Assembly (NCBI GenBank): GCA_045648305.1
Contig: JAZRNR010000163.1
Span: forward strand, 45,929-109,928
Direction of reading: 5' to 3'
DNA: 64,000 bases
From: Acutalibacteraceae bacterium
Lineage (GTDB): Bacteria > Bacillota > Clostridia > Oscillospirales > Acutalibacteraceae
The notes beneath the pieces are model-generated. The model saw only the letters and a program-made list of their open reading frames with translations, was not told the origin of the DNA and made no database searches. Each line of letters starts with the position of its first letter. The first letter of the stretch is position 1. The position numbers were made by a program, and so were the translations under genes. Positions 3,193 to 62,509 of this stretch are shown here, piece after piece.

Positions 3193-3495
3193 ATGCCAAA
3201 AAGAGCAAAAACGAGTAAGATACAATCCAAGTTTGAAATAATTGAAAAGTTTGCTTTGCATGGAATCACTACGGAAGAACAGATAAAAAACCTCACACCG
3301 ACAGAGGCATTGAGTATGAAAGATATATCCTTTGATGATATTTCTCTTATTCATAAAATTCAGGAATGTGTGAAAGAAAACAAAATATTTTCCTTTCTTA
3401 CCGCAGAAATAACCGACACTGTTGAGATTAAAAGCACAGAAAAGCCGCCGAGAAAGGCTAAATCAAACAGTGAGGTGAAACCTGATGGCGAGTAA
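3193..3495 (+). CDS. small hypothetical protein
   Basis: ATG 3193 is preceded by AAAGGAGAAGG. The 3' end overlaps the start of the giant gene. Confidence 0.5.
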   Translation: MPKRAKTSKIQSKFEIIEKFALHGITTEEQIKNLTPTEALSMKDISFDDISLIHKIQECVKENKIFSFLTAEITDTVEIKSTEKPPRKAKSNSEVKPDGE

Positions 3496-6400
3496 ATTAC
3501 AGATTATCAACGCTATGTTCGATGATGAAGTGAGCAAGGTTACGGACAGTTATGACAGGTGGACATCATTTCTCAGAACTGCATCCAATAACTATAAGTA
3601 TAACTTCCACGAACAGATTTTGATTTACAGCCAAAGACCTGATGCAACGGCCTGTGCAGAGATAGGTTTTTGGAATGATAAAATGAACCGTTGGGTCAAT
3701 CGAGGTGCATCGGGTATTGCATTGTTTGATTACTCAGGTAATTATCAGAGATTACGATATGTTTTTGATGTTTCGGATACAAATTCATTTTACGGTTATG
3801 AGGTTCCACGATGGGAAGTAAAAGACCGTTATCACAGTGAAATTGCCGAAGCTTTGACCAATGCTTTCGGTGATACAGCCGAGGGAGGTCTTGAAAGTGT
3901 AATTGACGATACTGCGAGAAATATGGCTGAAGATAATGCCATTGACTATATCTCAACCTTGAAAGACAGTGCAGACGGCAGTTTCCTCGAAGAGCTTGAT
4001 GAAGATAATATTTCGGTTGTTTTAAAGAACACTCTTGCTTCAAGTATCGGATATATGATGATGACAAGGTGTGGTATCAATGCAGATGAATTTTATGACC
4101 GTGAAGATTTTAAAGACCTGTTTAATTTCAACACTCCGTCAACAGTTATTGCAATGGGCGTAGCAGTAAGTGATATTGCGGAAATGGGTCTTCGTGAAAT
4201 CGAGAGTACGGTAAAAAATATTCAGAAACTTGAGAAAAAACAAAATCGCACATTTGTCAATGTAAAAGAAACCGAGTATGATGAGGGTGCAATAAACCAA
4301 ACTGAAAGGAGAAATGAAAATGTCACAGATGAGTTACAGACAGGTAGGGGATTATCAGATTCCGAATCTCACATTGCCTCCCGAGGAGAACGTTACACTT
4401 GGGAAGTACGGTATGATGAGGAAGAAATACCTGATGGAACACAGGAAGGTCTATTTCACTCAGTTGATAGCGAAGGGCGAACTGATGCGAACCGTCAAAC
4501 AGACGGAAACCGAAGCTTTACAGATGACGGAGCAGCTGACCGGACAGCTGATGAAATCTTGGGGAGTGACGGAGGAACTCAAAGCATCAGACCCGATGAA
4601 GTGGGTAGGCTTGATGAACAACATCAGGATGACAGTCGAGGAAATCGTGATGAAGGAACTGATTTACAGTTAAGCGGACACGACTTTGATGCCCGTTGGA
4701 ATGGTGTCGAATATTTCCACCAAGACAAACAAAAAAGTGAGTTAATAAGGTCTTTTTTAACTCCGCATACAGAAGAAATCGCTATGTTCTATGAAAGTCA
4801 TTCAGACAAACAGGAACGTAGCGATTTTATTAAGTCTTTCTTTAATTCAATACCTTATGAAACAACACTCACAAACGGGGTAAAAGCAGGTTTTGAAGCA
4901 TATTCCGATGCTATCAGATTATGGCGTGATGACGGAACCGAACTCCGGGAAGCTTGGTCAAAATGGTTTCAGATTGAGCGTTCTGTTTTCGGTATGATAC
5001 TCATTGAAGAATGGACAGAGCCGCAGGCTTTGTTGTTACCCGGTGTGGAAACACAACTTGAATTCATCGGCACCAAAGTAAAGGATGCTGTTCTTCCGTT
5101 ACCGCAGGGTGCTATTGACTATGTGCTTGGCAGTGGCAGTGGTTTTAGTGAAGGTAAAATGCGTGTGTACCGACAGTTTACCGAAAGTCTTTCAAAAGAA
5201 GATAATATCAAGTTTTTGAAAAATGAGTATGGTACAGGCGGCGGTACAAGTGTTATCCCCGGTACGGGTTATTGGGAAAACCACGATGCTAAAGGTATTG
5301 AAATATCTGACCATTACAGTGTTCCTGAAAGACGAACTCTGCTTAAATGGAATTATGTTGAAAAGCGTATTTCCGAACTCATAAGGCTCGACAGATATCT
5401 GAGTCAGAAAGAAAAGGAAATGTATCCTCAGTGGCTTGAAGAAAGAATTGCAAAGGAAGCAGCGTGGAAAAAGACAAATGAAATTCGTCAGATAATCCGT
5501 GATGCTCCTGAAAAGCAGGGTCCACCGAAGGAATACAGATTTGAATATAACCTCGGTGATACGGTGTATATCGGTGCTGATGAATACACCATACTTTCTC
5601 TTGAAGACCCCGTCATTCTTAATGACAGCCAATATCCGTTATTCAGCAAGGAACTTTCTAAGGCTGATTTTGAACAAAAGATAAAAGAAAACCCTGCCAA
5701 CAACCATTTAAGAGTTGAAGTTGCAGTTGAAATACCTGTAATTAATAACGAACTCGAAACAGAGGTTGATGACAGTAATAAACCGGATTTCTTGGTTCAG
5801 TATGAGCAGGTAAAAAAGGAAAATCCCGATGGTGTACTTCTTATGCATACAGGTGGGTTCTATATTGCATTTGGCAAGGATGCTCAAACACTTTCAAAGT
5901 ACACACATTATACTGCTCCGGGAAAAAATTTCTACGGAAATGTCTTTACTCCTTGTTGTGAAGTTCTCGACTTCAATCTCAGCTATTGTCAGAAAGAGCT
6001 TTACGCAAACAATAACATTAATATTGTTATTATGGAGGTTGACAAAGGTGTTGTTGACAGATTCCCGACACCTTCAGTTGAAATAACTGAAACCTTTGAT
6101 GTTGAATATACCGATGCTTTCTTCGTAAATGACGGCAGTAATAATGTTGAGTGGATATATTACAATCCTGACGGCAATGACGGTAAGGGACAGTTTGTTA
6201 ATAACCTTATAACTTTCGAGGATATTTTAAAGGCAGCAGAGCTTCATACGGATGAAAAAGAGTTCTTTGATTATCTCGGTTCTGTTGCTAAACAGACACT
6301 TTCTGATTACGGCACAAAAGAATATAAGGAAGATTATGAGTATTTCCATTCTGCTGTTGATTTGACCGATTGCACAAATGAAACTATGCAGGCTCTTATT

Positions 6401-9400
6401 GAAGAAGCAAAGACTATTGAAAGAGATGCTCCTGCGAATCCTGAAAACAGCCGTGACTCCTATTGGGATGCTTACAATGATATAAAGCACGACAATCCTT
6501 CTTCTTTGGTGCTTTATCAGGTGGGAGATTTCTTTGAAGCATACGGTGAAGAGGCAAAACAGATAGCAAAGGCTCTTGATATTCACCTTACCGAAAGAAC
6601 GGTTTACGGTAATACAAGAGTAGATATGTGCGGTGTTCCGAAACACAGACTTGAAACGTATCTTGATATGCTTACAGACAGAGGTTTTGATGTTACTGTT
6701 TCTGCCTTTGAAAACGGAGAAAGAAAAACATTTTCTCTTATTTCCACCAACAAGGAAGACCCGGTTGAGTCCAGACCCGTAGGCAGAATTGATTATCTTC
6801 ATACAGACGGCACGGTTCGTGAAAGTATAGAATATACAAGCGAATATCAGTTCGTAAAGGATATTAAGGATGAGAATTACTACGGTACTCCGATGTCAGT
6901 CGTTGCTTATGCAGATAACGACGGTAATACCGTTTCACTTGACTTTATATCTGAACTTGACCCGCAGTTACAGAGCTTTCAGGTAGTCCGCAGTCCTTAT
7001 CTTGAAAAATCACTGTCTGAAAGACTTGTTGATTTTTATGAAAGCTTCGATTTTTACGGATTCAGAGATACTCTTGAAATCGGTGAGTCAAAAGAGGATG
7101 CGGCAGATAAGCTTGCCCTTGATTTGCAGAACCCGCAGTCCATTGATGCTGCTATTGCAGAGTTGGAAAGTCTTGTTGCTGAGGCAGACCCCGAAGATAA
7201 AGCAACAGCACAGCAGTTGATAGCTGAACTGAAAGAAGAAAAAGACAAGCTGACTGTTATTCCCGATGCGGAGCTTATAGGCAAAGAGGTCATTATTGAC
7301 GGTACCGCATTTGTTATCGAAAAGATTGACCCTGTGTTCGGTCAGGTTTCAATGCGTGACACTTCTTCACTGTATCCGATTAACCGTGTAGAAAATATCA
7401 ATGTTGTACGTGAGTATATAAATCAGCAGAACACACCGAGCTATTTAATAGAAAAGGTTGATGAAATATCTGCAGAAGAAAGCGGACTCCCGTTTGATGT
7501 AACCATTCAGACGCTTCGCACAGAAGCACCTACCTTAACTCCGCCTGTCTGGGAAGAAAAGAAAGAGAAGGTAACAACACTTTATCCTACTATTCCCGAC
7601 AGTGAAAAGCACAATTTCAGAATAACAGATGATAATTTAGGTGTAGGCGGTCCGAAAGAAAAATTCCGTAATAATATGGCTGCTATCAACCTCTTGCACG
7701 ATCTCGAATTTGAAAACCGTCTTGCAACTCCCGAAGAACAGGAAATACTTTCAAAGTATGTAGGCTTCGGTGGTCTTGCGGATGCTTTTGATGAAAGCAA
7801 AGCAAATTGGGCAGATGAATACAAGGAACTAATTGTTACACTCTCTCCCGAAGAATATGCTGCAGCACGAGAAAGCACACTTACTGCTTTCTATACACCT
7901 CCCGGAGTTATCCGTGCTATGTATGAAGCACTTGGTAATATGGGATTCAGCGAAGGTAATATTCTTGAACCGTCTTGTGGTACGGGTAACTTTATAGGTA
8001 TGCTTCCTGACAATATGCAGAAGAGTAATTTCTTCGGTGTTGAGCTTGATAGCTTAACAGGTCGTATTGCACAGCAGTTATATCAGAAATCAGGTATCAC
8101 AGTACAGGGTTATGAAAACGCATCACTCCCCGACAGTTTCTTTGATGTTGCCATAGGTAATGTGCCTTTCGGTCAGTTTAAAGTAATTGATAAAAAGTAC
8201 GACAAGAATAATTGGCTCATACACGATTACTTTTTCGGAAAGACACTTGATAAGGTTCGCCCCGGTGGTGTAATTGCATTTATTACTTCTTCGGGTACTT
8301 TGGACAAGAGAAATTCAAATGTAAGAAAATATATCGCACAAAGAGCCGAGCTTCTCGGCGCCATTCGTTTGCCGAATAACACATTTAAGGCTAATGCAGG
8401 TACCGAGGTAACTTCAGATATTCTCTTCTTGCAGAAAAGAGATACTCTTGTAAATGATGAACCCGATTGGGTTCACCTTGACCGAGATGAGAACGGTAAC
8501 GAATACAACAAGTATTTTGTTGACCACCCTGAAATGGTACTCGGTGAAATGGTTATGGAGTCCTCACAGTTCGGTTATTCCTTGACTTGTAAGCCGTATG
8601 AGGACAGAAACCTTACTGACCTTTTAAGCGAAGCAGTACAGAATATTCATGCAGAGATTACAGAGTTTGATATTTCAGAAATCGGTGAGGTTGAAGATAA
8701 TTCAGTTCCTGCCGACCCGAATGTTAAGAATTTCAGTTTTACTGTTGTCGAGGATAAGATTTATTATCGTCAGAACAGCAGAATGAATCCTGTTGATGTT
8801 TCTGCAACTGCTGAAAGCAGAATTAAGGGTATGATTAAAATCCGTGATTGTGTTCGTGAGCTTATACGACTTCAGACGGACGATTATACCGATTCTGCTA
8901 TTCTTTCTGCTCAGGAAAGATTAAACACCTTATATGATGATTTTACAAAGAAATACGGACTTCTAAATGCAAGAGCTAATAGATTAGCTTTTGCTGATGA
9001 CAGTTCATATTGCTTACTTTGTTCTCTCGAAATCGTTGGTGAAAACGGTGAACTTAAACGCAAGGCGGATATGTTTACCAAGAGAACCATCAAACCTCAT
9101 ATTAAGGTAACATCTGTTTCAACTGCAAGTGAAGCACTCGCTGTTTCAATCGGTGAAAAAGCAAAGGTTGATATGGACTTTATGTGTGAGCTTACGGGTA
9201 AAACGGAACAGGAACTCTTTGAAGAACTCAAAGGTGTAATCTTTCTTAACCCGGAATACACAAATGAGTATAGCAACGATGAAAGGTATCTCCCTGCAGA
9301 TGAATACTTGTCAGGCAATGTACGAAAGAAACTTGAACTTGCAAGACGAACTGCAGAGATTTACCCCGATGATTACAACATCAATGTTGAAATGCTTGAA

Positions 9401-12394
9401 AAGGTACAACCTCAAGATTTGACAGCAAGTGAAATCTCTGTTCGTTTGGGTGCAACTTGGCTTCCACCTGAAGATGTTGAGAGATTTGTATATGAAATTT
9501 TACAGACACCTCGTTATGCACAGTGGAATATTAAGGTTAAATATACCGAACTTACGGGTGAATGGACTATCGTAAATAAGACTTATGACCGAACCAATGT
9601 TGTTTCTAATACAACCTACGGTACAAGTAGAATCAATGGTTATAGAATTATTGAAGATACTCTCAATCTTAAAGATGTTCGTATTTTCGATTATGTCGAA
9701 GATGAACATGGAAATAAAAAGCCTGTTCTCAATAAAAAAGAAACTGCTATTGCTCAGGGTAAGCAAGAAATGATAAAACAAGCCTTTCAGGATTGGATTT
9801 GGAAAGACCCGGAACGAAGAGTAAGACTTGTTAGAATTTATAACGATTTGTTCAATTCAATGCGAGCTCGTGAGTATGATGGTAGTCATATCACATTTTC
9901 GGGTATGAACCCTGAAATATCTTTACGGCCACATCAAATAAATGCTGTTGCCCGTATTATGTACGGTGGTAATTCCTTACTTGCTCATGTTGTTGGTGCA
10001 GGCAAGACCTTTGAAATTGTTGCTGCAGCACAGGAAAGCAAAAGGCTGGGACTTTGCAATAAATCCCTTATTGTAGTTCCTAACCACCTTACAGAACAGT
10101 GGGCATCCGAATACCTCCAACTTTATCCTTCAGCAAACATTCTTGTTTCTACGAAGAAAGACTTTGAAACAAAGAACCGTAAGAAGTTCTGTGCTCGTAT
10201 TGCCACGGGTGATTATGATGCTATTATCATAGGTCATTCACAGTTTGAAAAAATTCCTATCAGTATTGAAAGACAAAAAGAAATGCTTCAGCGACAGATT
10301 GATGAAATAACTCTCGGTGTGCAACAAATCAAGTATGACAGAGGTGAGAAAATCACCGTTAAACAGCTTGAAAAAACGAAGAAATCGTTACAGACGAAAC
10401 TCGATAAGCTCAATGACCAAAGCCGTAAAGACGATGTTGTTACCTTTGAAGAATTAGGTGTTGACAGACTCTTTGTTGACGAAGCTCACAATTTCAAGAA
10501 CCTCTTTCTATATACAAAAATGAGAAACGTGGGCGGTATCGCACAGACGGAAGCACAGAAATCTTCCGACCTTTATATGAAGTGCAGATACCTTGACGAA
10601 GTGACTGGAAACAAAGGTGTTATCTTTGCTACGGGTACTCCCGTTTCAAACTCAATGGTAGAGCTTTATACAATGCAGAGATACCTTCAGTATGATGCAC
10701 TTGAAGATAAGCATTTACAGCATTTCGACTCTTGGGCATCAACATTTGGTGAAACTGTTACAGCTATTGAACTTGCCCCCGAAGGTACAGGTTATCGTGC
10801 GAAAACACGATTTGCAAAGTTCTATAACCTACCCGAACTTATGATGATGTTCAGGCAAGTTGCTGATATTCAAACGGCAGATATGCTCAATCTTCCCGTT
10901 CCTAAAGCAAACTTTCATAATATTGCAGTTAAGCCGACAGAACATCAGAAACAGATTGTTGAATCTCTTTCAGAACGAGCCGAAAAGGTAAGAAACAAGA
11001 TGGTTGATTCAAGTGTTGATAATATGCTTCTCATTACCAATGACGGCAGAAAGTTAGCACTTGACCAAAGACTCTTCAATGAACTGTTACCTGATGACCC
11101 TGACAGTAAGGTTGCAGCTTGTGTTGATAATGTTTATGGCATTTGGGAGAAAACAACTCCTCAAAAATCAACACAGCTTATTTTCTGTGATTTATCTACT
11201 CCGCATAATGACGGTAAGTTTAATGTTTATGATGACATTAAGAAGAAGCTTATTGCAAAAGGTGTCCCGGAAAGTGAAATAGCCTTTATTCATAATGCAG
11301 ATAGTGAAGCAAAGAAAAAAGACCTTTTCGGAAAAGTCCGTTCAGGTCAAGTTCGTGTTCTTATAGGTTCAACCGCCAAAATGGGTGCAGGAACTAATGT
11401 TCAGCAGAAGCTCATAGCAATTCATCATACTGACTGTCCGTGGCGTCCTGCAGATTTGCATCAGCGTGAAGGTAGAATTATCCGACAAGGTAATGAAAAC
11501 CCCGAAGTTGAAATTTACAGTTATGTAACAGAGCAGACCTTTGATGCATACCTTTATCAGCTCGTTGAGAATAAGCAAAAGTTTATAGGTCAGATTATGA
11601 CTTCCAAATCGCCTGTGCGTTCAGCAGAAGATGTTGACGAGCAGGCGTTATCTTATGCCGAAATCAAAGCTCTTGCAACAGGTAATCCGTATATCAAGGA
11701 AAAGATGGATTTGGATGTTGCCGTTTCAAAGCTCAAACTTTTGAAGCAGAACCATTTGAGTCAGAGATATAGCCTTGAGGACAGAATTATTAAGTTCTAT
11801 CCTCAACAGATAAAGCAAGGTGAAGAAAGAATTGCCGGGTACAATGCAGATATTGAAAGAGCAAAAGAAAACACCTTCCCGAGTGTTGATAACTTCTCAC
11901 CTATGGTGGTTGAAGATGTTACCTATGACGAAAAGAAAGGTGCAGGTTCAGCACTTTTGGTGGCTTGTAAGGCGATGACTTCACCTGAACCGAAAGCAAT
12001 AGGTTCATACCGTGGCTTTAATATGGAGATGTCATTCAATTCTTTTGAAAAAGAATATGTATTAACTCTTGTAGGTTCACTCAGACATTCTGTATCTCTC
12101 GGTGCTGATATTTACGGTAATATTACCCGTCTTGATAACCTTATATCTTCAATGCCTGACAAATTAAAGGCTTGTGAAGAAAGACTTGCTGATACAAAGG
12201 TTCAGCTTGAAAATGCAAAAGCAGAGGTTGAAAGACCGTTTCCGCAGGAAGAAGAACTCTCACAAAAAATGGAGAGATTAGCAGAGCTTAATGCTTTGCT
12301 TGATATGGACCATCGTGAAAATGAAATTGTCGATGGAGAAGTAGAGCAAGAAGGAACAGAAAGACCTGTTATTGATAAATCGATTTCAAGATAA
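3485..12394 (+). CDS. polyvalent conjugative-element protein: ArdC-N-like ssDNA-binding + 2x MutS-domain-I-like + N6-adenine DNA methyltransferase + SNF2/DEAH helicase
   Basis: Uninterrupted 2969-codon ORF. Domain motifs, N- to C-terminal:
- ArdC-N-like: ILIYSQRPDATACAEIGFWN.
- MutS-I-like: LLMHTGGFYIAFGKDA and LVLYQVGDFFEAYGEEAKQIAKALDI.
- Methyltransferase motif I ILEPSCGTGNFIG and motif IV GNVPFG.
- Helicase: GAGKTFE, DEAHNFKN, HQREGRIIRQGN. Confidence 0.9.
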   Translation: MASKLQIINAMFDDEVSKVTDSYDRWTSFLRTASNNYKYNFHEQILIYSQRPDATACAEIGFWNDKMNRWVNRGASGIALFDYSGNYQRLRYVFDVSDTNSFYGYEVPRWEVKDRYHSEIAEALTNAFGDTAEGGLESVIDDTARNMAEDNAIDYISTLKDSADGSFLEELDEDNISVVLKNTLASSIGYMMMTRCGINADEFYDREDFKDLFNFNTPSTVIAMGVAVSDIAEMGLREIESTVKNIQKLEKKQNRTFVNVKETEYDEGAINQTERRNENVTDELQTGRGLSDSESHIASRGERYTWEVRYDEEEIPDGTQEGLFHSVDSEGRTDANRQTDGNRSFTDDGAADRTADEILGSDGGTQSIRPDEVGRLDEQHQDDSRGNRDEGTDLQLSGHDFDARWNGVEYFHQDKQKSELIRSFLTPHTEEIAMFYESHSDKQERSDFIKSFFNSIPYETTLTNGVKAGFEAYSDAIRLWRDDGTELREAWSKWFQIERSVFGMILIEEWTEPQALLLPGVETQLEFIGTKVKDAVLPLPQGAIDYVLGSGSGFSEGKMRVYRQFTESLSKEDNIKFLKNEYGTGGGTSVIPGTGYWENHDAKGIEISDHYSVPERRTLLKWNYVEKRISELIRLDRYLSQKEKEMYPQWLEERIAKEAAWKKTNEIRQIIRDAPEKQGPPKEYRFEYNLGDTVYIGADEYTILSLEDPVILNDSQYPLFSKELSKADFEQKIKENPANNHLRVEVAVEIPVINNELETEVDDSNKPDFLVQYEQVKKENPDGVLLMHTGGFYIAFGKDAQTLSKYTHYTAPGKNFYGNVFTPCCEVLDFNLSYCQKELYANNNINIVIMEVDKGVVDRFPTPSVEITETFDVEYTDAFFVNDGSNNVEWIYYNPDGNDGKGQFVNNLITFEDILKAAELHTDEKEFFDYLGSVAKQTLSDYGTKEYKEDYEYFHSAVDLTDCTNETMQALIEEAKTIERDAPANPENSRDSYWDAYNDIKHDNPSSLVLYQVGDFFEAYGEEAKQIAKALDIHLTERTVYGNTRVDMCGVPKHRLETYLDMLTDRGFDVTVSAFENGERKTFSLISTNKEDPVESRPVGRIDYLHTDGTVRESIEYTSEYQFVKDIKDENYYGTPMSVVAYADNDGNTVSLDFISELDPQLQSFQVVRSPYLEKSLSERLVDFYESFDFYGFRDTLEIGESKEDAADKLALDLQNPQSIDAAIAELESLVAEADPEDKATAQQLIAELKEEKDKLTVIPDAELIGKEVIIDGTAFVIEKIDPVFGQVSMRDTSSLYPINRVENINVVREYINQQNTPSYLIEKVDEISAEESGLPFDVTIQTLRTEAPTLTPPVWEEKKEKVTTLYPTIPDSEKHNFRITDDNLGVGGPKEKFRNNMAAINLLHDLEFENRLATPEEQEILSKYVGFGGLADAFDESKANWADEYKELIVTLSPEEYAAARESTLTAFYTPPGVIRAMYEALGNMGFSEGNILEPSCGTGNFIGMLPDNMQKSNFFGVELDSLTGRIAQQLYQKSGITVQGYENASLPDSFFDVAIGNVPFGQFKVIDKKYDKNNWLIHDYFFGKTLDKVRPGGVIAFITSSGTLDKRNSNVRKYIAQRAELLGAIRLPNNTFKANAGTEVTSDILFLQKRDTLVNDEPDWVHLDRDENGNEYNKYFVDHPEMVLGEMVMESSQFGYSLTCKPYEDRNLTDLLSEAVQNIHAEITEFDISEIGEVEDNSVPADPNVKNFSFTVVEDKIYYRQNSRMNPVDVSATAESRIKGMIKIRDCVRELIRLQTDDYTDSAILSAQERLNTLYDDFTKKYGLLNARANRLAFADDSSYCLLCSLEIVGENGELKRKADMFTKRTIKPHIKVTSVSTASEALAVSIGEKAKVDMDFMCELTGKTEQELFEELKGVIFLNPEYTNEYSNDERYLPADEYLSGNVRKKLELARRTAEIYPDDYNINVEMLEKVQPQDLTASEISVRLGATWLPPEDVERFVYEILQTPRYAQWNIKVKYTELTGEWTIVNKTYDRTNVVSNTTYGTSRINGYRIIEDTLNLKDVRIFDYVEDEHGNKKPVLNKKETAIAQGKQEMIKQAFQDWIWKDPERRVRLVRIYNDLFNSMRAREYDGSHITFSGMNPEISLRPHQINAVARIMYGGNSLLAHVVGAGKTFEIVAAAQESKRLGLCNKSLIVVPNHLTEQWASEYLQLYPSANILVSTKKDFETKNRKKFCARIATGDYDAIIIGHSQFEKIPISIERQKEMLQRQIDEITLGVQQIKYDRGEKITVKQLEKTKKSLQTKLDKLNDQSRKDDVVTFEELGVDRLFVDEAHNFKNLFLYTKMRNVGGIAQTEAQKSSDLYMKCRYLDEVTGNKGVIFATGTPVSNSMVELYTMQRYLQYDALEDKHLQHFDSWASTFGETVTAIELAPEGTGYRAKTRFAKFYNLPELMMMFRQVADIQTADMLNLPVPKANFHNIAVKPTEHQKQIVESLSERAEKVRNKMVDSSVDNMLLITNDGRKLALDQRLFNELLPDDPDSKVAACVDNVYGIWEKTTPQKSTQLIFCDLSTPHNDGKFNVYDDIKKKLIAKGVPESEIAFIHNADSEAKKKDLFGKVRSGQVRVLIGSTAKMGAGTNVQQKLIAIHHTDCPWRPADLHQREGRIIRQGNENPEVEIYSYVTEQTFDAYLYQLVENKQKFIGQIMTSKSPVRSAEDVDEQALSYAEIKALATGNPYIKEKMDLDVAVSKLKLLKQNHLSQRYSLEDRIIKFYPQQIKQGEERIAGYNADIERAKENTFPSVDNFSPMVVEDVTYDEKKGAGSALLVACKAMTSPEPKAIGSYRGFNMEMSFNSFEKEYVLTLVGSLRHSVSLGADIYGNITRLDNLISSMPDKLKACEERLADTKVQLENAKAEVERPFPQEEELSQKMERLAELNALLDMDHRENEIVDGEVEQEGTERPVIDKSISR
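4320..4673 (+). CDS. tnpV: TnpV-family small protein, nested in +1 frame inside the giant gene
   Basis: The frame opens just after TAA 4293-4295. AAAGGAG sits at 4305-4311, ATG codons at 4314 and 4320, and TAA at 4671-4673. The product YRQVGDYQIPNLTLPPEE..LGKYGMMRKKYLMEHRK....GVTEELKASDPMKWVGLMNNIR..VEEIVMKELIYS matches my memory of the TnpV family pattern. Confidence 0.6.
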   Translation: MSQMSYRQVGDYQIPNLTLPPEENVTLGKYGMMRKKYLMEHRKVYFTQLIAKGELMRTVKQTETEALQMTEQLTGQLMKSWGVTEELKASDPMKWVGLMNNIRMTVEEIVMKELIYS

Positions 12395-16394: not shown

Positions 16395-17353
16395 ATGGCA
16401 TATTATTCTCAAAGTGCTATTAACAGAGCAAGGGAAATGGATCTTCTCACTTATCTGCAAACTTATGAACCTAACGAGCTTGTGAGGATTTCAGGTAACA
16501 CTTACACCACAAAAACACACGATAGTTTAAAAATTTCAAACGGGATGTGGATGTGGTGGTCGAGAGGTATCGGCGGAAGAAGTGCTGTTGATTATCTTAT
16601 GAGGGTGCGTGATATGACTTTCATTGAAGCGGTATCACAAATTGCAAATGATGAAAGTGCTCTAAGGAAACAGTATGAAAAACCAAAAACGAGAACGGAA
16701 AGAAATCTAATACTTCCTACAAAAGCAGATAATAATAACATTGCAATCGAGTATTTGAAACAAAGAGGAATTAATGAAGAGGTTATTTCTTACTTCATTG
16801 AAAACGATATGCTCTATCAAAGTGTGCCGATGAATAACATTGTATTTGTCGGTTACGATGAAAATAACAAACCTAAATATGCAGGTATGCGTGGTACAGA
16901 AAAGTACAGATATATCGGTGATGCTTACGGAAGTGATAAGTCATTTCCTTTTCGGTTAGTAAATAAAGACAATACAAATATTCATATTTTTGAAGGTGCA
17001 ATAGATTTATTATCTTATGCAACACTTCTTTATGAGCAAGGTTCTGATTTCAAAAGTCAGAACCTTGTTTCTTTATCCGGAGTATATAAGCCGACAAAAA
17101 ATATGAATAATGCACAGATACCACTTTCATTACAGACTGTACTCAAAGATAATCCGCAACTTAAAACTGTTTATCTTCATTTGGATAATGACTCTGCAGG
17201 CCGTAAAGCTGCAGAGGTAATAAGCAATTTATTGAAAGATAAATACACTGTAAAAAACATTTTGTACCTGTAGGTAAAGATGTAAATGACTATTTATGTT
17301 ATTCAAAAAATTTACCATACAGAACTTTTGAAAAGGAGGTTGCATGTAGATAA
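16395..17353 (+). CDS. DUF3991/Toprim-domain protein (primase-like), interrupted by an apparent 1-nt deletion in an A6 run
   Basis: Toprim DxD motif in YLHLDNDSAGRKAAE. The annotated frame stops at 17271-17273. The +1 frame from 17264 reads PVGKDVNDYL... and ends at TAA 17351-17353, overlapping the next ATG as TAATG. Confidence 0.75.
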
Positions 17354-17913
17354 TGAAAAAATTTGAAGTAATTATAACCGAAACTTTGAAAAAGAAAGTT
17401 GAAGTTGAAGCAGAAACTCAGGAAGAAGCAGAACAGATTGTAACCGATGATTGGTACAGAGGTGAACATATTCTTGATGCTGATAACTTTACCGAAATTA
17501 ACTTTGAAGCAAAGGAATGTATTCCTGAAAAGATAAAAGTTGTTTTGGTTGAACCCGGCAAGATTGCAAAAGTTCAGGAGATTGATTCTTCTCTTGAGAG
17601 TATGCAAAACATTGTCGGAGGTAATGTTGATGTTCGTTATTTATCAGACGGTCTAATTATTCATAACCGTGAAGGTAAACTTCTTTCTTTACCATTAAAC
17701 AGAGGACTGTGTGATGGTGAAGGCAGAGTTAATGATATCATTTTCGGAACATTTTTTATCTGTGACAGTAAAGAAGATGAGTTTACAAGTCTTTCTGATA
17801 AACAGATAACCGAACACTTAAAAAGGTTTAAGTACCCTGAAAAGTTTTTTAAGGTCGATGACCGTATAACTAAAGTACCATATAACCCGATAAAAAAAGA
17901 ACATGAAAGATAA
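17353..17913 (+). CDS. DpnD/PcfM-like N-domain + DUF3846-domain protein
   Basis: VVLVEPGKIAKVQEIDSSLESMQNIVGG....FGTFFICD matches the remembered DUF3846 pattern. The gene is translationally coupled on both sides. Confidence 0.65.
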   Translation: MKKFEVIITETLKKKVEVEAETQEEAEQIVTDDWYRGEHILDADNFTEINFEAKECIPEKIKVVLVEPGKIAKVQEIDSSLESMQNIVGGNVDVRYLSDGLIIHNREGKLLSLPLNRGLCDGEGRVNDIIFGTFFICDSKEDEFTSLSDKQITEHLKRFKYPEKFFKVDDRITKVPYNPIKKEHER

Positions 17914-17927
17914 TGGAGGAATATATA

Positions 17928-18164
17928 ATGAAAAGATTTAAAGCAGTCGTAATTCATTGCTTAGCCAATGTGGTTGAAGTAATTGCAAACTCAAAAGAGG
18001 AAGCTGAAGCAAAGATAAAAGATATTGACAATTCAACTGACGTAATTTCGCAGCTTGAAAACACGAAAATGTTTCCGGTATATAAGGTGTTTGAAGCTGA
18101 CAGCGAGTCAGAGGACTGTGATACAGATGATACTCAGAACGTTTCTGACGACGAAGAAGTCTGA
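17928..18164 (+). CDS. small DpnD/PcfM-like protein with acidic tail
   Basis: GGAGGA lies 7 nt upstream of ATG 17928. The N-terminus resembles that of the previous gene (KRFKAVVIHCLANVVEV vs KKFEVIITETLKKKVEV). Confidence 0.55.
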   Translation: MKRFKAVVIHCLANVVEVIANSKEEAEAKIKDIDNSTDVISQLENTKMFPVYKVFEADSESEDCDTDDTQNVSDDEEV

Positions 18165-18204
18165 TTGATGAGCTGTATTAACAGAAAAAATGCGTGGCAT
18201 CAGT

Positions 18205-18249
18205 CTTAACAAGCATTGGGTAAAAGGGACATTTTACCCGCTTGTTAAG
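18205..18249 (+). other. candidate oriT hairpin
   Basis: Nested perfect inverted repeats: CTTAACAAGC/GCTTGTTAAG enclose GGGTAAAA/TTTTACCC. The hairpin lies about 150 nt upstream of mobC and the relaxase gene. Confidence 0.5.
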
Positions 18250-18291
18250 GGTTTTCACCCCTAACACCCCCGAAGAAAGGAGATGATTCCA

Positions 18292-18402
18292 ATGGACACA
18301 TTGGCTTATGTTGTGTTGATAGCATTGGCGTTTGCCTCTAATATTACTGCAACAGTATTGGTAGAAAAATTCAAAAGAAAAGGATTGATTTGTTGTGAGT
18401 GA
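18292..18402 (+). CDS. 36-aa hydrophobic micro-ORF upstream of mobC
   Basis: AAGGAG lies upstream of ATG 18292. The product is MDTLAYVVLIALAFASNITATVLVEKFKRKGLICCE. Its stop overlaps the GTG start of mobC. Confidence 0.35.
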   Translation: MDTLAYVVLIALAFASNITATVLVEKFKRKGLICCE

Positions 18403-18721
18403 GAGAAAATATGAATTTCATATCTATCTTAACGAAGAGGAAAAAGATGCTTTATGCAAACTTTCTGAAATTATAAAACTTTCAAAGTCGCAACTTATAA
18501 GAGAAATTATTTTAGGTTATTCTCCACCCGAAGGACCTCCTGCAAATTATGACGAATTGATTTATCAGTTACGGTGTATCGGTAATAACATCAATCAGAT
18601 TCTTCGCATTGCAAGAACGAATGGTATATTAAATCCTGTTGAGTTGGAAAAGCATTTGTCTGAGCTTAAAGATGTTGAACAGGAAATGCATGATGCTTTC
18701 AGGATAAACAGAAAAAATTAA
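18395..18721 (+). CDS. mobC: MobC-like relaxosome accessory protein
   Basis: Motif LRCIGNNINQILRIAR, and position immediately 5' of the relaxase gene. Confidence 0.8.
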   Translation: MSERKYEFHIYLNEEEKDALCKLSEIIKLSKSQLIREIILGYSPPEGPPANYDELIYQLRCIGNNINQILRIARTNGILNPVELEKHLSELKDVEQEMHDAFRINRKN

Positions 18722-18722
18722 A

Positions 18723-20111
18723 ATGGCAATAGTATATATCATTCCTATTCGTACACATCTTGACAGAACACTTGCTTATGTCGGTAACAAAAATAAAACT
18801 GAAAACGAAAACTACGAAAAAATGTTTCTGAATTTGCATAGTGTACTTGATTACAGTATTAATGATTTAAAAACAGAAGAACAGTTTTATGTTACTCCGA
18901 CTCAAAACCTGACATCAGTTGAAAACGCATTTCAGGAAATGAAGCGAACAAAGAAACGTCATCGCAAGACAGACGGAATTCTCGGTTATCACATTATTCA
19001 ATCGTTTGCACCCAATGAAGGAACACCGGATAAGATTCACGATTTGGGAATTGAATTTTTAAACAGAGCTTTTAACGGTTATGAAGGAGTCGTTGCAACA
19101 CATCTTAATACAGACTGTTTGCACAATCATCTTGTAGTGAACTCTGTTCAAGCAAAATCAGGATTGAAGTTCAACGATTGTCTTGAAAGCTATTATAACC
19201 TTCGTGAAATTTCTGATGACCTTTGTCGCGAATACGGGTTGTCTGTTATTAACAATCCGAAAAAGCGTGGTCATAAAAGTTATGATTTATATATGGCAGA
19301 AAAAAACGGAGAGTGGACAAAGGATGCAATCATCAGAAGAGATATTGATGAATGTATTCTGACAACAACAAATCGAAAAGCATTCTTTATTGAAATGCAA
19401 AGACTCGGATACACTTTTAATTTCAATCGTAAGTATCCGACTATTTCACATCCGAACTTTGAAAGACCGAGAAGATTAAAAACTCTCGGAGATGATTATA
19501 CAATTGAAAGCATAGACAACAGAATAAAATCAAAATGGCAGAGATACAGAATAGATATTCCTCAACAAGATAATCTTGTTGGGGATTTTTTTGTTCCTCT
19601 CGTTGAACAAACTTATCAACAGATTTATGTTTCGTTTGTAACCGTTGTTCAGTATGTAAAGAAAAATCCTAACAAGAACAGAGGTCTTGATAAATATCTC
19701 ATTGATGAAATGCGAAAGCTTGATAAACTGATTGAACAACAAAATCTTTTGTGTGATAACAACATCGATACTTCCGAACAACTTTCAGAATACAGACAGT
19801 CTTGCGAAAAAGAACTTCAGGAATGTGATGAAGGAAGAAAACGTCTTCGCAATATGTTAAAGGTTGCGGTTAGAAGTAATGATGAAAAAGAAATAGCTGA
19901 AATCAAAAATTCAATTTCGGTGTTAAGTCAGAGGATGAATACTTTAAGAAAAGATATTCGTATCTGTGACAGAATACAAAACGATGAACCTAAAATCGAA
20001 AACAAGATAAATAAAATTATGAACGATAAAGAAAGAAGGGAGATGAGTACAGATGAACGCTTCAGGCGACGCAGCAGAACAAATCGTGAGGATGACACTA
20101 CAGGGCGTTGA
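18723..20111 (+). CDS. relaxase/mobilisation nuclease (MobA/VirD2 superfamily)
   Basis: His-rich motif HLNTDCLHNHLVVNSV. N-terminal relaxase domain followed by a coiled-coil tail. Confidence 0.85.
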   Translation: MAIVYIIPIRTHLDRTLAYVGNKNKTENENYEKMFLNLHSVLDYSINDLKTEEQFYVTPTQNLTSVENAFQEMKRTKKRHRKTDGILGYHIIQSFAPNEGTPDKIHDLGIEFLNRAFNGYEGVVATHLNTDCLHNHLVVNSVQAKSGLKFNDCLESYYNLREISDDLCREYGLSVINNPKKRGHKSYDLYMAEKNGEWTKDAIIRRDIDECILTTTNRKAFFIEMQRLGYTFNFNRKYPTISHPNFERPRRLKTLGDDYTIESIDNRIKSKWQRYRIDIPQQDNLVGDFFVPLVEQTYQQIYVSFVTVVQYVKKNPNKNRGLDKYLIDEMRKLDKLIEQQNLLCDNNIDTSEQLSEYRQSCEKELQECDEGRKRLRNMLKVAVRSNDEKEIAEIKNSISVLSQRMNTLRKDIRICDRIQNDEPKIENKINKIMNDKERREMSTDERFRRRSRTNREDDTTGR

Positions 20112-28582: not shown

Positions 28583-29368
28583 ATGTATAAGATTAATAAT
28601 TTTCAGAATAACGACGATGTAAGGATTCTCGATGAAAGAGGACCCTTTACCATTATTGAATACAAGAAAGATTTGAGTGTTACACCTTCAACGGCAATGC
28701 TCGCTTTCTTCTGTAACGAGATGAACGTAAGAAAACGTCAGCTCATCTGCAACCTTGCGGAAGCTGATGTCACAGTGCAGGCAGGAGCAATGCAGTGGTC
28801 TGTCGGTAATGTAAATGCAACAACAGGCATTAAGGGTGTAGGTGACCTTTTCGGCAAGGCAATCCGTGGCAAGGTTACGGGTGAAAGTGCAATCAAGCCC
28901 GAATACACAGGTAACGGTACACTTGTTCTTGAACCCACCTATAAGCATATTATTCTTATGAATACAGCCGACTGGAACGGCGCAGTTGTCCTTGATGACG
29001 GTCTTTTCCTTGCCTGCGATTCTGCACTTGAACAGAAAGCAGTAATGCGTACAAACCTTTCTTCAGCGGCTCTCGGTGGTGAAGGTCTTTTCAATCTCGG
29101 ACTTACAGGCAACGGTATGTTTGCCATTGAATCAAGATGTCCGAAAGAAGAACTCATTGAAATTGAACTCAATAACGATGTTCTCAAGGTTGACGGCAAT
29201 CTTGCTCTTGCCTGGAGTAAGTCACTCGATTTCACGGTTGAGCGTTCAGGCAAAACACTTGTAGGCTCTGCCGCATCCGGCGAAGGTCTTGTAAATGTTT
29301 ACAGAGGTACCGGTAAGGTTCTTCTTGCTCCTATTGATAAGACGATGCTTTACAACACTATCAACTGA
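28583..29368 (+). CDS. AIM24/DUF124-like protein
   Basis: Pattern QAGAMQWSVGNVNATTG....GESAIKPEYTGNGTLVLEP....GGEGLFNLGLTGNGMFAIES....GEGLVNVYRGTGKVLLAP. Confidence 0.6.
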   Translation: MYKINNFQNNDDVRILDERGPFTIIEYKKDLSVTPSTAMLAFFCNEMNVRKRQLICNLAEADVTVQAGAMQWSVGNVNATTGIKGVGDLFGKAIRGKVTGESAIKPEYTGNGTLVLEPTYKHIILMNTADWNGAVVLDDGLFLACDSALEQKAVMRTNLSSAALGGEGLFNLGLTGNGMFAIESRCPKEELIEIELNNDVLKVDGNLALAWSKSLDFTVERSGKTLVGSAASGEGLVNVYRGTGKVLLAPIDKTMLYNTIN

Positions 29369-31356: not shown

Positions 31357-31609
31357 ATATCAGTTGAATAAGTGCAGATAAAAATACTCTACCGTAGTTT
31401 GACCGAGAGGGATAGGTACTTCTCTGGGTGGTAAGATAAGGTTTAGGATGAGATAATCGCTAACCTAACGATATTGAGTTGCATTTTTGTTTGACATAAT
31501 AATATTTTTCTTTCCATAAAAACATCCTGTTATTTGGTAGCTTAATTTTACCTAATAGCAGGAGGTTAGTCTAATGTGTAGATAAAATAATATTCAAACT
31601 TCAAATCAC

Positions 31610-31904: not shown

Positions 31905-34900
31905 ATGAAAACAAAAATGTGGATAAGAATCATATCAACAATTCTTTCAATTCTTTTTGTGCTTGAAATTCTGCCAATTTCTGTAATGGCGGAAGAGTAC
32001 AACAAATACAAAGATTTATCAAACGCAGAACTGTTTACTCAGCAGGAAGAAAAATCGCCTATCGTTTCCGAAGTGGTTTCTGAACGCGATGCCTTCAAGA
32101 AGGTTTTTGAACGCGAAGACGGTTCGTTTACAGCAATCATTTCATCCGGTCCCGTTCACTATTTCGAAGACGGTGAATGGCTTGAAATTGACAATACACT
32201 TACAGAAACAAACGGTACAATCACAAACGAAAGTAATGGCTTTTCCGTTGACTTGCCGTCAGAGATAACATCAGACAAAAATGTAACCATAGCAACTGAA
32301 AAGGCAGAACTTTCATTTACTATGGAAAACATATCATCATCTGTAGCAGAGATCGCAGAGATTGAACCTGTTAATGATGAAACATCGCTTATGATGGGTC
32401 TTGACAACATCGCTTCATCTGTTGAATACACATCTGTTATGACAAATACTGATCTTGTGTATGATATCGGTGCAGACTCTGTTAAGGAAAGCATAATTCT
32501 TTCATCTTGCCCATCTCAGGTAACTGACTATTCATATACAATTAATACAAATGGTGCTACTCTCTATCTTAATGAAGATAACAGCATCAATGTTGTTAAG
32601 AACGGACAGATTGAGTTTGTTATCGAAGCTCCGTATATGTTTGATTCAAACGGTATTTCGACAGATTATATTGATGTATCACTTGAAAACATCGGTGAAT
32701 CTACATATACCCTTACATACTCTCCTGATTATGATTGGCTTTCATCAGACGAGAGAGTATACCCCGTAACAATCGACCCGACAACTACAGTTTATTCTGC
32801 GACTGCTATTTCGGAGGCATTTATCGGAACGGTTGATTCAACTGCAACTGATCTCGATAAGTTTCACTATTTAAAGAATGCAAATAGACTTTATTTTAAA
32901 TATTCAGATTCTGTTTCAAATGGTTTTGGTAAGAATGCAGTTATCACAAATGCTGAGTTTTCTCTTTACTGCGAGGCTTTGACGGACGATGATACTCTTG
33001 CTGTTTTTCCGATTTCTTCAGAGTGGACCGAAGAAACTGTAACTCCTGTCACAGAAACTGCAGACTTGCTTGATTATAATATCATCAAATATGGTGAATC
33101 AGCAAAACGTTATGTTTGGGATATTACTGAAATAGCGGCAAAATGGCAGATGAATCAGTTTGATAACAACGGTATATCTATAAGACAGCTTAGCGATACA
33201 ATCAACACAAAAATTTACCGTTCTACAACTGCTAATCTTACTTCGCGCAGACCTTGGTTCCAGATTGACTATGTAACAATCGATAATATGGCAGAATATG
33301 ATACTGAAACTGTCGATATGGGTAGAGCGGGTACATTCTATCTCAATAAATATACCGGCACATATTATGTCAAAAGATCAGACCTTAGTCTCAACGGTAA
33401 TGTTTCTCCTGTAGAAATGAGCTTTACATATGATCCGTGGAGTGCAAGTATTACACGAGGTTCATCCTACGGTGCTTATTGGATTACAGATTACTACAAC
33501 AAAATATTCTATAGTCAGACTGTAACAGAGAATGATATTACAAGACATCAGTATACATTCAGAGACAATGGAGGTATCAAAACACGTTTTGTCGAGGTTG
33601 TATCAACAGATGAAGATTACAGTACAGTGCCTGAAGGATTCACTGAATCATACCTCACAGATTATACAAGATACAAGGCGGTTTCAGGTGATTTAAACAA
33701 ATGTCTTTGGGTTCCTAAGTCGGATACAACTTACAAAGATTTCGCTAATATGATTATCGAGGACTCTACTTATCGTTACACGATTGACAGCATCAATAGA
33801 GTAACATCACGAGTACATAAGACAAGTGGTGCGGTAATAGCTATCGAACACAGAACAGCATCATCTGATGCAATTCGTTCTGTAACTGATGGTGTCGGAA
33901 GAAAATATGATCTTCCATCAGCAAAAGATACTAATGGCAAGACAATTACAGATAAGTTGGTAATGTACAATTCTTCAGGTAATGTGATTAAAGTTTCAAC
34001 TCTTACAGGGGATGTCGCAATCGGAGTAGATTATGGTTATACCGCAATTGATGATGCAACATCGCATCTTACAACAGTAACCTACGCTGACGGCGAAGCA
34101 ATTACTTACGAATACAACACAGACGGACTTATGACATCTGTCACTAATGTTGACGGTTCTCGTCTTGAACTTCGTTACAGCGGTGACAGAGTAATCGGCT
34201 ATACAAAGTATGCTTATTATGTATCAGCCGGCAATTCACAGAACTGCTTTGAAAGTCAGCTTGATATTAGCTTTGACGGACCGAAACAAAGAACATTTAC
34301 ATATTATGAATATGATAAAACCACTCCGTCAATTGTTACTAAGCAGCGTTATGATTCAACACTGCAGGCAACTGATTATATAAACAGTGACGGAGAATAC
34401 AGTTATACAAAAACAATAACAACCGATACAACTGAAATTGCAAGTTATTCAACAAATGACGATGAGGCAACCAACCTCATTGCAAATGGTAATTTTGAAA
34501 GTGGTAAAACAGGTTGGATAAGTGTACCGGATAATGCAAGTATCGGATTGCCTGTGCTTAGTGAAACGTTTGCTTTTGATGGAGTTTCCGGTAAAATGAT
34601 TTCGCTTAACTCAGGTTTAAGAAAGAATCTTCGTGTAGGTCAGACTATTTCAAGTTTACCCGCAAATGAAGATACAGTTTACACTTTGAGTGCTTGGGCA
34701 AAAACGTATCGTTCTGTGGCGACAAGCTATGTTAATGACCACGCACATCTCGATAAAACTTTTGCGATTTGTGTAACAGATAACGAAGGCAATGTTCTTG
34801 CACAGTATGATTTTGACACAACGACCGATGAATGGCAGTTCGGTGCTGTTTCATTCGAAACAGATGTCACTCTTGAAAATATCAAAGTAATTCTTATGGC

Positions 34901-39727: not shown

Positions 39728-40606
39728 ATGATATGTGGTAAGGATTTAATTATCAAGTTTTTAGATGAAACAAATACAGCTAAAGAAAGTATAACAATCA
39801 CAACATCTGAAGAAGATGCTTCTCCTTTTGATAGAAATGTGCAAGTAGGTCGAGATTCTATTGACTTAAGAATAGCAAGTTCTGGCTATAAAATAAAATG
39901 TAATTATGATTTCATTAATACATTAGATTCAAAGGTTGATGAGTATTTTTATGATATCTCACTTGAGAAAGACGGATATATTATTCAGCCTGGGGAAACA
40001 ATAATTGTCAACACAGTGGAAAGAATAAAACTAACAGGAAATATAACTGGAGAATTAACGGGACGAACTCGTTTTGCTAGAATGGGTCTATCCGTTTGTA
40101 GTGCTACAAAATTCCAAAGTTATTCTGACGCTATTATTGTTTTGCAAATATGCAATCATAATAAAGTTCCTTTAAAGATATTTCCATATCAAAAATTAGT
40201 TCAATTGGTTATTCACCAAGTAGATGGAATCCCAAATGAAAAACGAGGCAATTACCATAACGAAATAAAACTTATGAAACCGATAATTGGCGATGAAGAA
40301 TTAACAGGTTTGTCTCCTGAAAGAAAAAAGTCTATAAGTCGTCAAATGCCACAAAAATCCTCTTTTGTTACAGAAGATGGTAACATTGATAATAAAAAGA
40401 GATTGAAGCAAAACAACAAAATTATGAATATATTTTCAAAAATATTTAGTTCCATATCCGCCATTCTTGGATTAATAATAGGTATATTATGCTCTTTACC
40501 TACTTTTAATACTACGCCAATAATAGTAATGTCAATTTCATCAGTATTATTGATAGTTATGTCGGTTGTGTTAGACACAATTAAAGATAACAATTTTATT
40601 GATTAA
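39728..40606 (+). CDS. dCTP deaminase (Dcd/dUTPase)-fold protein with C-terminal two-TM anchor; catalytic Glu position is Gln
   Basis: YIIQPGETIIVNTVERIKLTGNITGELTGRTRFARMGLSV aligns with E. coli Dcd [40 protein letters not shown]. The VLEF motif reads VLQI. C-terminal hydrophobic segments are ISAILGLIIGILCSL and IIVMSISSVLLIVMSVVL. Confidence 0.65.
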   Translation: MICGKDLIIKFLDETNTAKESITITTSEEDASPFDRNVQVGRDSIDLRIASSGYKIKCNYDFINTLDSKVDEYFYDISLEKDGYIIQPGETIIVNTVERIKLTGNITGELTGRTRFARMGLSVCSATKFQSYSDAIIVLQICNHNKVPLKIFPYQKLVQLVIHQVDGIPNEKRGNYHNEIKLMKPIIGDEELTGLSPERKKSISRQMPQKSSFVTEDGNIDNKKRLKQNNKIMNIFSKIFSSISAILGLIIGILCSLPTFNTTPIIVMSISSVLLIVMSVVLDTIKDNNFID

Positions 40607-62416: not shown

Positions 62417-62509
62417 AAATCGCACATTTGTTGTTTCTCTTATATGTTGATATCATATAGTCAAGCCGCTTGGTTATATGATATCACCTGTTTAATAGGA
62501 GGAATTGTC

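Follow-up and report, generated by a model that had tools for sequence, protein, structure and literature searches.

In Bacillus subtilis, the 46-codon comS gene lies inside srfAB and is transcribed from the srfA promoter; comS is not known to belong to any family outside close relatives. In viral overprinting, the newcomer is usually the nested gene, with a novel, disordered product. Here we describe a tnpV gene nested within the coding sequence of a giant polyvalent gene on a conjugative element of an Acutalibacteraceae bacterium (GenBank assembly GCA_045648305.1, contig JAZRNR010000163.1, forward-strand positions 45,929 to 109,928). This stretch of 64,000 nucleotides (nt) is referred to as the window, and positions are given within it. 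In our judgment the locus is, with good probability, genuinely dual coding, with a folded TnpV protein encoded in one frame and a disordered, acidic linker encoded in the frame of the giant gene. As in the case of comS and srfAB, a small same-strand gene for a separate protein sits out of frame inside a giant multidomain Firmicute gene. Unlike comS, the nested tnpV is 117 codons long, belongs to a large family whose members also stand alone, has an apparent embedded promoter of its own, and has a disordered linker, not an enzymatic domain, as its overlap partner; moreover, its nesting is conserved from family to family within the Clostridia and extends to Streptococcus. The long same-strand overlaps of phiX174 (B in A and E in D) likewise have one disordered or low-complexity partner (reviewed in PMC8227390), but in our case the nested gene would be the older and folded partner and the host frame the newcomer, and the setting is a conjugative element and not a genome whose size is limited by a capsid.

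The nested product belongs to the same Pfam family (PF14198) as the TnpV proteins of Tn4451/Tn4453-type transposons and of integrative and mobilizable elements (IMEs) inserting into snf2 genes, all of them mobile elements of Bacillota (PMC3158075, PMC9815147, PMC7168690, PMC5357655). A role of TnpV in excision has only been conjectured, from a claimed resemblance to lambda Xis (PMC3158075). In streptococci, tnpV-carrying IMEs with serine integrases insert specifically into the giant snf2/COG4646 genes of Tn5252- and Tn1549-type integrative and conjugative elements, a preference whose reason has been called unclear (PMC9815147, PMC7168690, PMC5357655). The same kind of giant SNF2/COG4646 gene is the host of tnpV here. 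However, the tnpV genes of Tn4451-type transposons and IMEs are ordinary, non-overlapping genes beside serine recombinases or cargo, whereas the window copy is nested. Further, the TnpX-type large serine recombinase beside tnpV on Tn4451 had no counterpart among the ten window open reading frames (ORFs) of >=400 amino acids (aa) that we scanned against Pfam, none of which contained a serine-recombinase or resolvase domain; such a neighbour is a matter of context and does not define the protein family. The giant gene itself fits the polyvalent proteins that Iyer et al. 2017 (PMC5512222) described from conjugative elements and phages, with several unrelated DNA-handling domains carried on a conjugative element; in common with them it has an N-terminal header, followed by modules of the MutS-I, methylase, and SNF2 helicase types. 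The words "TnpV," "overlapping," and "linker" are absent from the main text of that paper, which thus appears not to describe a nested gene.

The giant protein consists, in this order, of an N-terminal domain, the overprinted linker, two MutS_I stretches, an Eco57I-like N6 methyltransferase, an SNF2/ResIII helicase, and a Helicase_C domain (Pfam). Relative to the giant ORF (3485..12394), tnpV is in phase +1 [(4314 - 3485) mod 3 = 1]. Its product matched PF14198 with an E value of 1.3e-39 (135 bits against a cut-off of 27), and the alignment ran from end to end (residues 8 to 117 on profile positions 2 to 111 of 111), so that the family assignment made in a preliminary description of this DNA holds over the full profile. 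The PHROGs family phrog_24764 also matched (2.8e-31); NCBIfam gave no match for the nested product. A total of 1942 TnpV homologues were found, and among those listed nearly all were 114 to 133 aa long, with 117 aa the commonest length in the family. The nested gene is an ORF of this stand-alone size, with its own ATG at 4320, the Shine-Dalgarno (SD) sequence GAAAGGAG 8 nt upstream of it, and a TAA at 4671. ATG 4320 is the likely start, with a product of probably 117 aa, since the alternative ATG at 4314 follows the SD by a mere 2 nt. The preliminary description had placed the upstream stop, the SD, both ATGs, and the terminal stop correctly; the choice of start is refined here, and the embedded promoter described below had gone unseen. 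An AlphaFold2 model of TnpV, built on 26 homologues, had a predicted local distance difference test (pLDDT) score of 89.6 and showed a beta-hairpin followed by a helical bundle; fold searches against PDB and BFVD returned no match at E<1, so that the structure offers no hint of function. As a control set we used ten other alternate-frame ORFs inside the giant gene, and none had a Pfam match.

To place the nesting in a wider context, we fetched 82 loci, namely L001 (the closest TnpV relative, 97% identical), L002 (81%), and 80 loci from species-representative genomes. The giant frame passed across tnpV without a stop in 59 of the 82 loci, as it does in the window. Wherever the contig was long enough, these open giant-frame ORFs comprised 2600 to 3250 codons and started ~840 nt upstream of tnpV, and the third forward frame at the nested tnpV always contained 3 to 22 stops. 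Searches with pieces of the giant protein (tblastn) indicated that every nested tnpV directly follows a homologous N-terminal domain in an identical frame relation, with domain identity down to 37%. Both frames were intact over the overlap in 59 loci, which represent 32 lineages below 80% nt identity and come from Acutalibacteraceae, Oscillospiraceae, Lachnospiraceae, Christensenella, Anaerovoracaceae, Butyrivibrio, Enterocloster, and other taxa. Stand-alone tnpV copies (n = 24) had 1 to 19 stops in the giant-equivalent (+2) frame, and none of them lay inside a giant gene; at one locus (L054), a giant gene ~2 kb upstream of the stand-alone copy holds a nested copy of its own. Two stand-alone copies with 1 to 2 stops in the +2 frame (L016 10001-10345 and L065 243-602) grouped with nested lineages in a rough tree and may be recent escapes from the nested state. 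A sequencing or assembly artefact, by which compensating indels would have wrongly moved a normal in-frame segment into another frame, or vice versa, has next to no chance of explaining this pattern. Nothing in its favour was found, and the frame relation was identical in 59 independent assemblies from many taxa, isolate genomes were among them (Enterocloster, Agathobaculum, Butyrivibrio, Yeguia), one record was titled a complete genome, and one plasmid record was described as a complete sequence.

A second sample was drawn by the N-terminal domain alone, in a HMMER scan of 1.84 billion cluster representatives that yielded 3680 matches at E<=1e-3. A hidden Markov model (HMM) of the linker, made from the giant-frame translation of nested tnpV, matched 112 of the 120 long-enough proteins among the best 150 of these 3680. 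The eight exceptions comprised internal deletions, an insertion of a group II intron reverse transcriptase, chimeras, a frameshift, and one shortened giant with a different linker. This shortened giant, P0159, was considered as a possible ancestral arrangement; it has no nested tnpV, but a stand-alone tnpV lies on the opposite strand just downstream. When the linker profile was run against a collection of 5.8 billion proteins, only 4 weak matches were obtained, an uninformative result that probably reflects low complexity and the word index. Outside the Clostridia, the gene for a 2422-aa "DEAD/DEAH box helicase family protein" on a Streptococcus suis plasmid contains a nested 144-codon ORF in the +1 frame, 772 nt from the giant start, preceded by GAAAGAGGAGG and matching Pfam TnpV at 1.6e-14. 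In a neighbor-joining tree of TnpV, the nested copies were not resolved as one clade, and thus a single origin is not established.

The two frames carry different marks of selection. For a stop to arise in the giant frame, a tnpV codon ending in T must be followed by AA, AG, or GA. In the window, 15 of the 119 codons of the nested ORF end in T, and none of these is among the 35 positions preceding such a dinucleotide; this rule of stop avoidance had been proposed in the preliminary description, and it held when we recounted. Stop-creating codon pairs occurred in 0 of 2073 chances in nested copies, compared with 196 of 869 in stand-alone copies, and T ended 14% of codons elsewhere in the nested genes. 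When the TnpV proteins were re-coded with stand-alone codon usage, 7.8 giant-frame stops were expected on average, and the probability of obtaining none was <=0.001 in each of 32 lineages differing by >20% in nt sequence. The composition of the giant frame was also shifted: its hydrophobic share was 12% in nested copies versus 26% in the same frame of stand-alone tnpV (p=5e-12), and its acidic share was 22% versus 11% (composition shift, p about 1e-11). The third positions of tnpV, which are the first positions of the giant frame, were 48% G in nested copies, and this yields D, E, and G codons in the linker. In the window, the linker (aa 271-396) has 26% D+E, 11% G, and 16% hydrophobic residues, whereas the remainder of the giant protein is 33-34% hydrophobic, in keeping with the D/E/G/R/T-rich, low-complexity stretch that had been noted there.

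These counts also bear on whether the giant ORF is one protein at all or instead an N-terminal domain gene, tnpV, and a shorter helicase gene, with the open frame incidental. RefSeq/PGAP annotates close relatives in this way, keeping a "TnpV protein" and starting a truncated giant gene late (L001 9151-10273; L089 8159-11271). However, these models leave the conserved N-terminal domain without any gene, no in-frame stop separates that domain from the rest in 59 loci, the absence of stop-creating pairs is far from incidental under the re-coding estimate for each lineage, and the S. suis homologue is annotated as a single protein. We consider a division into three genes very improbable.

In the TnpV frame, the pattern was that of an ordinary protein-coding gene. 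Differences per site among nested pairs were highest at tnpV position 3, followed by positions 1 and 2; for instance, in the 70-80% identity bin they were 0.385, 0.232, and 0.182, respectively. The third position of the giant frame was the least variable, whereas a giant frame constrained as a protein would give the reverse, and in every divergence bin the TnpV frame exceeded the giant frame in amino acid identity. In the comparison of substitutions in both frames that the preliminary description had called for, the periodicity thus follows TnpV. All nested copies kept an intact tnpV ORF and the invariant residues of the family, including copies that had diverged to 45-50% identity. By these measures, the TnpV frame appears to be under ordinary purifying selection on its amino acid sequence, and the giant frame over tnpV appears to be merely kept open, hydrophilic, and acidic. 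That selection acts on both frames is indicated by substitution periodicity together with stop avoidance and composition. Conservation of the TnpV frame might also be ascribed to gene conversion from tnpV copies carried by IMEs; this was rejected as unlikely, since conversion would import stops. Nested and stand-alone copies at the same locus, each compared with the window TnpV, matched it to quite differing degrees (36-51% identity), which argues against recent homogenisation by conversion.

A swallowed tnpV could in principle serve solely as a linker and no longer make TnpV, the intact ORF being a leftover. In favour of this explanation, selection clearly keeps the giant frame open and hydrophilic. 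Nevertheless, constraint for a low-complexity linker only would have lost the TnpV frame, whereas the most diverged nested copies retain the ORF, the invariant residues, and TnpV-phased substitutions, and the SD, the spacing to the ATG, and the promoter are conserved as well. We regard such a relic as improbable, and dual coding remains the preferred reading.

The signals that would allow independent expression of tnpV are embedded in the giant coding sequence (Table 1). The sequence GAAAGGAG was found in 49 of 58 nested loci, and an SD-like motif stood exactly 8 nt before an ATG in 51 of 58. A consensus scan detected a candidate promoter, TTGTCA-17 nt-TATGAT (4254-4282), and we aligned 26 non-redundant subfamily-A loci on its TTG. 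AAATCGCACAT-TTG was 85-100% conserved per position (-11 to +2 around TTG), with the wobble positions of the N-R-T-F codons included, and amino acid changes from F to I or V still kept the TTG. The motif ATCGCACA was invariant across this alignment while the spacer had diverged, and the 17 nt after the -35 hexamer were unconserved across the 26 loci. A -10-like hexamer ([T/C/G]ATnnT, invariant at positions 2, 3, and 6) was nonetheless present at exactly 17 nt in 26 of 26 loci, compared with 2.9% at other TTG sites of the same ORFs. The second codon of this -10 box specified D, N, S, H, P, or A and always ended in T.

The window has one other exact copy of AATCGCACATTTG, at 62418 (+), where it forms part of a second promoter module in an intergenic gap (Table 1); by our own arithmetic, the chance expectation of an exact 13-mer is ~0.002 in 64 kb. 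The context of this copy consists of small ORFs that look excisionase-like by eye, just upstream of a partial integrase-like ORF. A perfect 12-nt inverted repeat (TGATATCATATA at 62448-62459 and TATATGATATCA at 62475-62486) overlaps its -10 box and looks like an operator. The module occurs again in an intergenic position at L021 19992. Taken together, the module reads as a real promoter type of these elements, whose copy in the giant ORF would drive tnpV, and TnpV is probably made from its own embedded promoter, SD, and ATG.

Programmed frameshifting would offer another route, in which ribosomes would leave the giant frame for that of tnpV and produce a fusion of the N-terminal domain to TnpV, with no independent start. 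One database protein, P0168, is such a fusion ORF, in which the N-terminal domain continues, after a frameshift, in the TnpV frame. At some loci, no stop closes the tnpV frame for up to ~100 nt or more upstream of the start. P0168 is, however, a single case that is consistent with an indel, and in the window the tnpV frame is shut by the TAA at 4293, 11 nt ahead of the SD. Reading of 100 nt by eye revealed neither a slippery site nor a stimulatory structure, although no dedicated search was made, and the conserved SD with an ATG at 8 nt, together with the promoter, indicates independent initiation. The chance that frameshifting explains the locus is, in our view, very slim.

Table 1. Positions of the giant gene, the nested tnpV gene, and associated signals in the window
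Feature	Position	Strand	Remarks
Giant polyvalent gene	3485..12394	+	Single ORF, 2969 aa
N-terminal domain of giant protein	3485..4294	+	aa 1-270; ends in conserved NRTF motif
Motif AATCGCACAT followed by -35 hexamer TTGTCA (4254-4259)	4244..4259	+	Within giant codons N-R-T-F-V
-10 hexamer TATGAT	4277..4282	+	17 nt after -35; within giant codons Y-D
TAA stop in tnpV frame	4293..4295	+	Shuts tnpV frame upstream of start
Overprinted interdomain linker	4295..4672	+	Giant aa 271-396; acidic, hydrophobic-poor
Shine-Dalgarno GAAAGGAG	4304-4311	+	Contains AAAGGAG (4305-4311); reads E-R-R in giant frame
Longer tnpV form	4314..4673	+	119 aa; ATG 4314 is 2 nt past SD
tnpV coding sequence	4320..4673	+	117 aa from ATG 4320; wholly inside giant ORF
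tnpV stop TAA	4671-4673	+	
Degraded tnpV N-terminal remnant, MSNKNATQYR-stop-VSDYLILNLILPP...	31400..31496	-	In-frame stop; same family, outside nested unit
Second promoter module, AATCGCACAT-TTGTTG, 17 nt, TATCAT	62418..62456	+	Intergenic gap

It is important to note that several observations weigh against genuine dual coding or narrow its basis. The promoter was lacking in 19 nested loci (subfamily B, in which the N-terminal domain ends in "...LRQIEVTIKNYEREK"). Both the promoter and the SD are consensus-level predictions, and transcription from the internal promoter and translation of TnpV are inferred. The promoter overlaps conserved codons (NRTF and Y-D), and some of its conservation could be at the protein level. 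The 82 loci were picked by TnpV similarity, many of them are related, so that the counts are not independent events, and the independent sample drawn by the N-terminal domain covers the closest 150 of 3680 clusters only. Moreover, no locus with three separate genes for the N-terminal domain, tnpV, and the rest was found among the loci examined. A short N-terminal domain protein, P0136, was considered as a possible ancestral split and rejected: in this case, a foreign insert falls exactly in the SD, at the end of a contig. L086 3820-3877, like P0168, is a natural disruption of the junction: foreign DNA interrupts the SD itself (after GAAAG, with the insert reading TCCAGC...), and several contigs break there.

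Under dual coding, ribosomes starting at 3485 would read the overlap as a flexible, acidic tether between the N-terminal header and the MutS-I/methylase/helicase body. A sigma-A-type promoter at 4254-4282, preceded by the conserved AATCGCACA motif, would feed tnpV through a second transcript whose start, a few bases past 4282, would lie downstream of the giant gene's own start codon. The first ORF of this internal transcript would be tnpV, translated from its own SD and ATG into a folded protein of 13 kDa, and since the transcript would lack the giant start codon, giant-frame ribosomes would not compete with tnpV on it. In the subfamily without the promoter, translation of TnpV would require internal initiation on the giant mRNA. 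The nature of TnpV would make the double use of the sequence feasible: its helices, rich in K, E, N, R, and T, would supply codons starting with AA, GA, and AG, and these codons, shifted by two bases with any base other than T before them, would give E, G, K, R, and Q, all of them linker-like residues.

As to the origin of the overlap, a pre-existing tnpV would have been read through in another frame and so have become a bridge between parts of the giant protein. We consider capture of this kind likely, the direction being inferred from the TnpV family, which extends far beyond the nested set and has among its members ordinary genes whose corresponding frame holds many stops. The preliminary description had left two possibilities side by side, dual coding and capture of a tnpV gene as a linker. 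Dual coding is favoured by our results, and capture is retained as the probable origin but not as the whole of the present state.

The AlphaFold2 model of the N-terminal domain had a pLDDT of 92.6. Sequence and profile searches of Pfam and PDB with this domain gave nothing, and its best PDB fold match in Foldseek, ArdC of R388 (6sna), was weak (E=0.085, prob 0.93, template modeling [TM] score 0.43); the modeled domain is possibly ArdC-N-like. The setting is a conjugative element of Bacillota. The window encodes a MobA/VirD2 relaxase, a VirD4-type coupling protein, a VirB4-type ATPase, and a VirB6-like protein, as well as an M23 peptidase, a DUF3991-Toprim protein, and a tyrosine integrase. From 63612 onward, at the 3' end, a partial ORF resembles a second integrase by eye. 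Two RHS-repeat proteins are encoded on the + strand at 31905-37814 (1969 aa) and 42077-48823 (2248 aa), and the window also contains an AIM24-domain protein (28583..29368) and a dCTP-deaminase-like protein (39728..40606). The degraded tnpV remnant listed in Table 1 sits in the gap just upstream of the first RHS-repeat gene, and at L083 a stand-alone tnpV was found near an RHS gene. A 192-aa ORF at 61635-62213 (+) adjoins the putative excision region; by eye, its N-terminal part resembles a PemK/MazF-type toxin, and its tail is Cys-rich.

One locus, L074, has both a nested tnpV and an inserted one. Here a stand-alone tnpV followed by a ribosomal-protection tet gene (17072-19732) is inserted in the giant gene that also holds the nested copy. 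The insertion point is helicase motif VI (directly after ...CPWRPGD), ~7 kb downstream of the nested tnpV. The insert matches the IME/CIME_SNF2 inserts (CIME, cis-mobilizable element) described in S. suis. We had considered that the nested tnpV might itself be the attachment site of snf2-targeting IMEs, and this was rejected for the one readable case, since the L074 insert lies in motif VI. Our guess at the role of TnpV is a regulatory factor associated with recombination or transfer and co-expressed with the excision module, because its promoter module is shared with the putative excision-integration region and because of the link to IMEs. It is conceivable, though doubtful, that the overlap is a functional coupling device and more than an accident that saves space. 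TnpV would then share the AATCGCACAT-TTG promoter/operator module with the putative excision-integration region and act in the control of recombination or transfer, possibly on the IMEs that parasitise the giant gene, and the embedding in an indispensable interdomain linker would lock both genes together. If this were true, neither gene could be deleted or replaced without destroying the other.

Overlapping genes are known, with comS in srfAB the closest analogue known to us; the present case differs in the length of the overlap, the breadth of its conservation, the probable reversal of the ages of the frames, and a candidate promoter within coding sequence. Among 8 million full texts, we found no description of a TnpV overlap, overprinting, or polyvalent nesting, although absence is not proof. 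Long overlapping genes in bacteria have mostly been contested claims from single lineages, with expression data and without evolutionary support, and the tnpV case is the opposite: a fully nested, same-strand pair of 350 nt has comparative support for both frames in dozens of Clostridia lineages and at least one Streptococcus element. Annotation that forbids overlaps either drops TnpV or truncates the giant gene. In the close relatives annotated by PGAP, for instance, the giant gene was truncated, while on the S. suis plasmid the giant gene was annotated whole and the nested TnpV-like ORF was missing (loci in conflict include L090 8082-15350). Thus, both gene families are miscounted in gut-microbiome catalogues. 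The usual direction of overprinting would be reversed at this locus, which suggests gene fusion by reading through an intervening gene; if the giant gene was indeed assembled by reading through an older gene, this would be a new route to domain fusion. Finally, the nesting offers an entry point to the function of TnpV, a protein that travels with antibiotic-resistance IMEs targeting the same giant gene.

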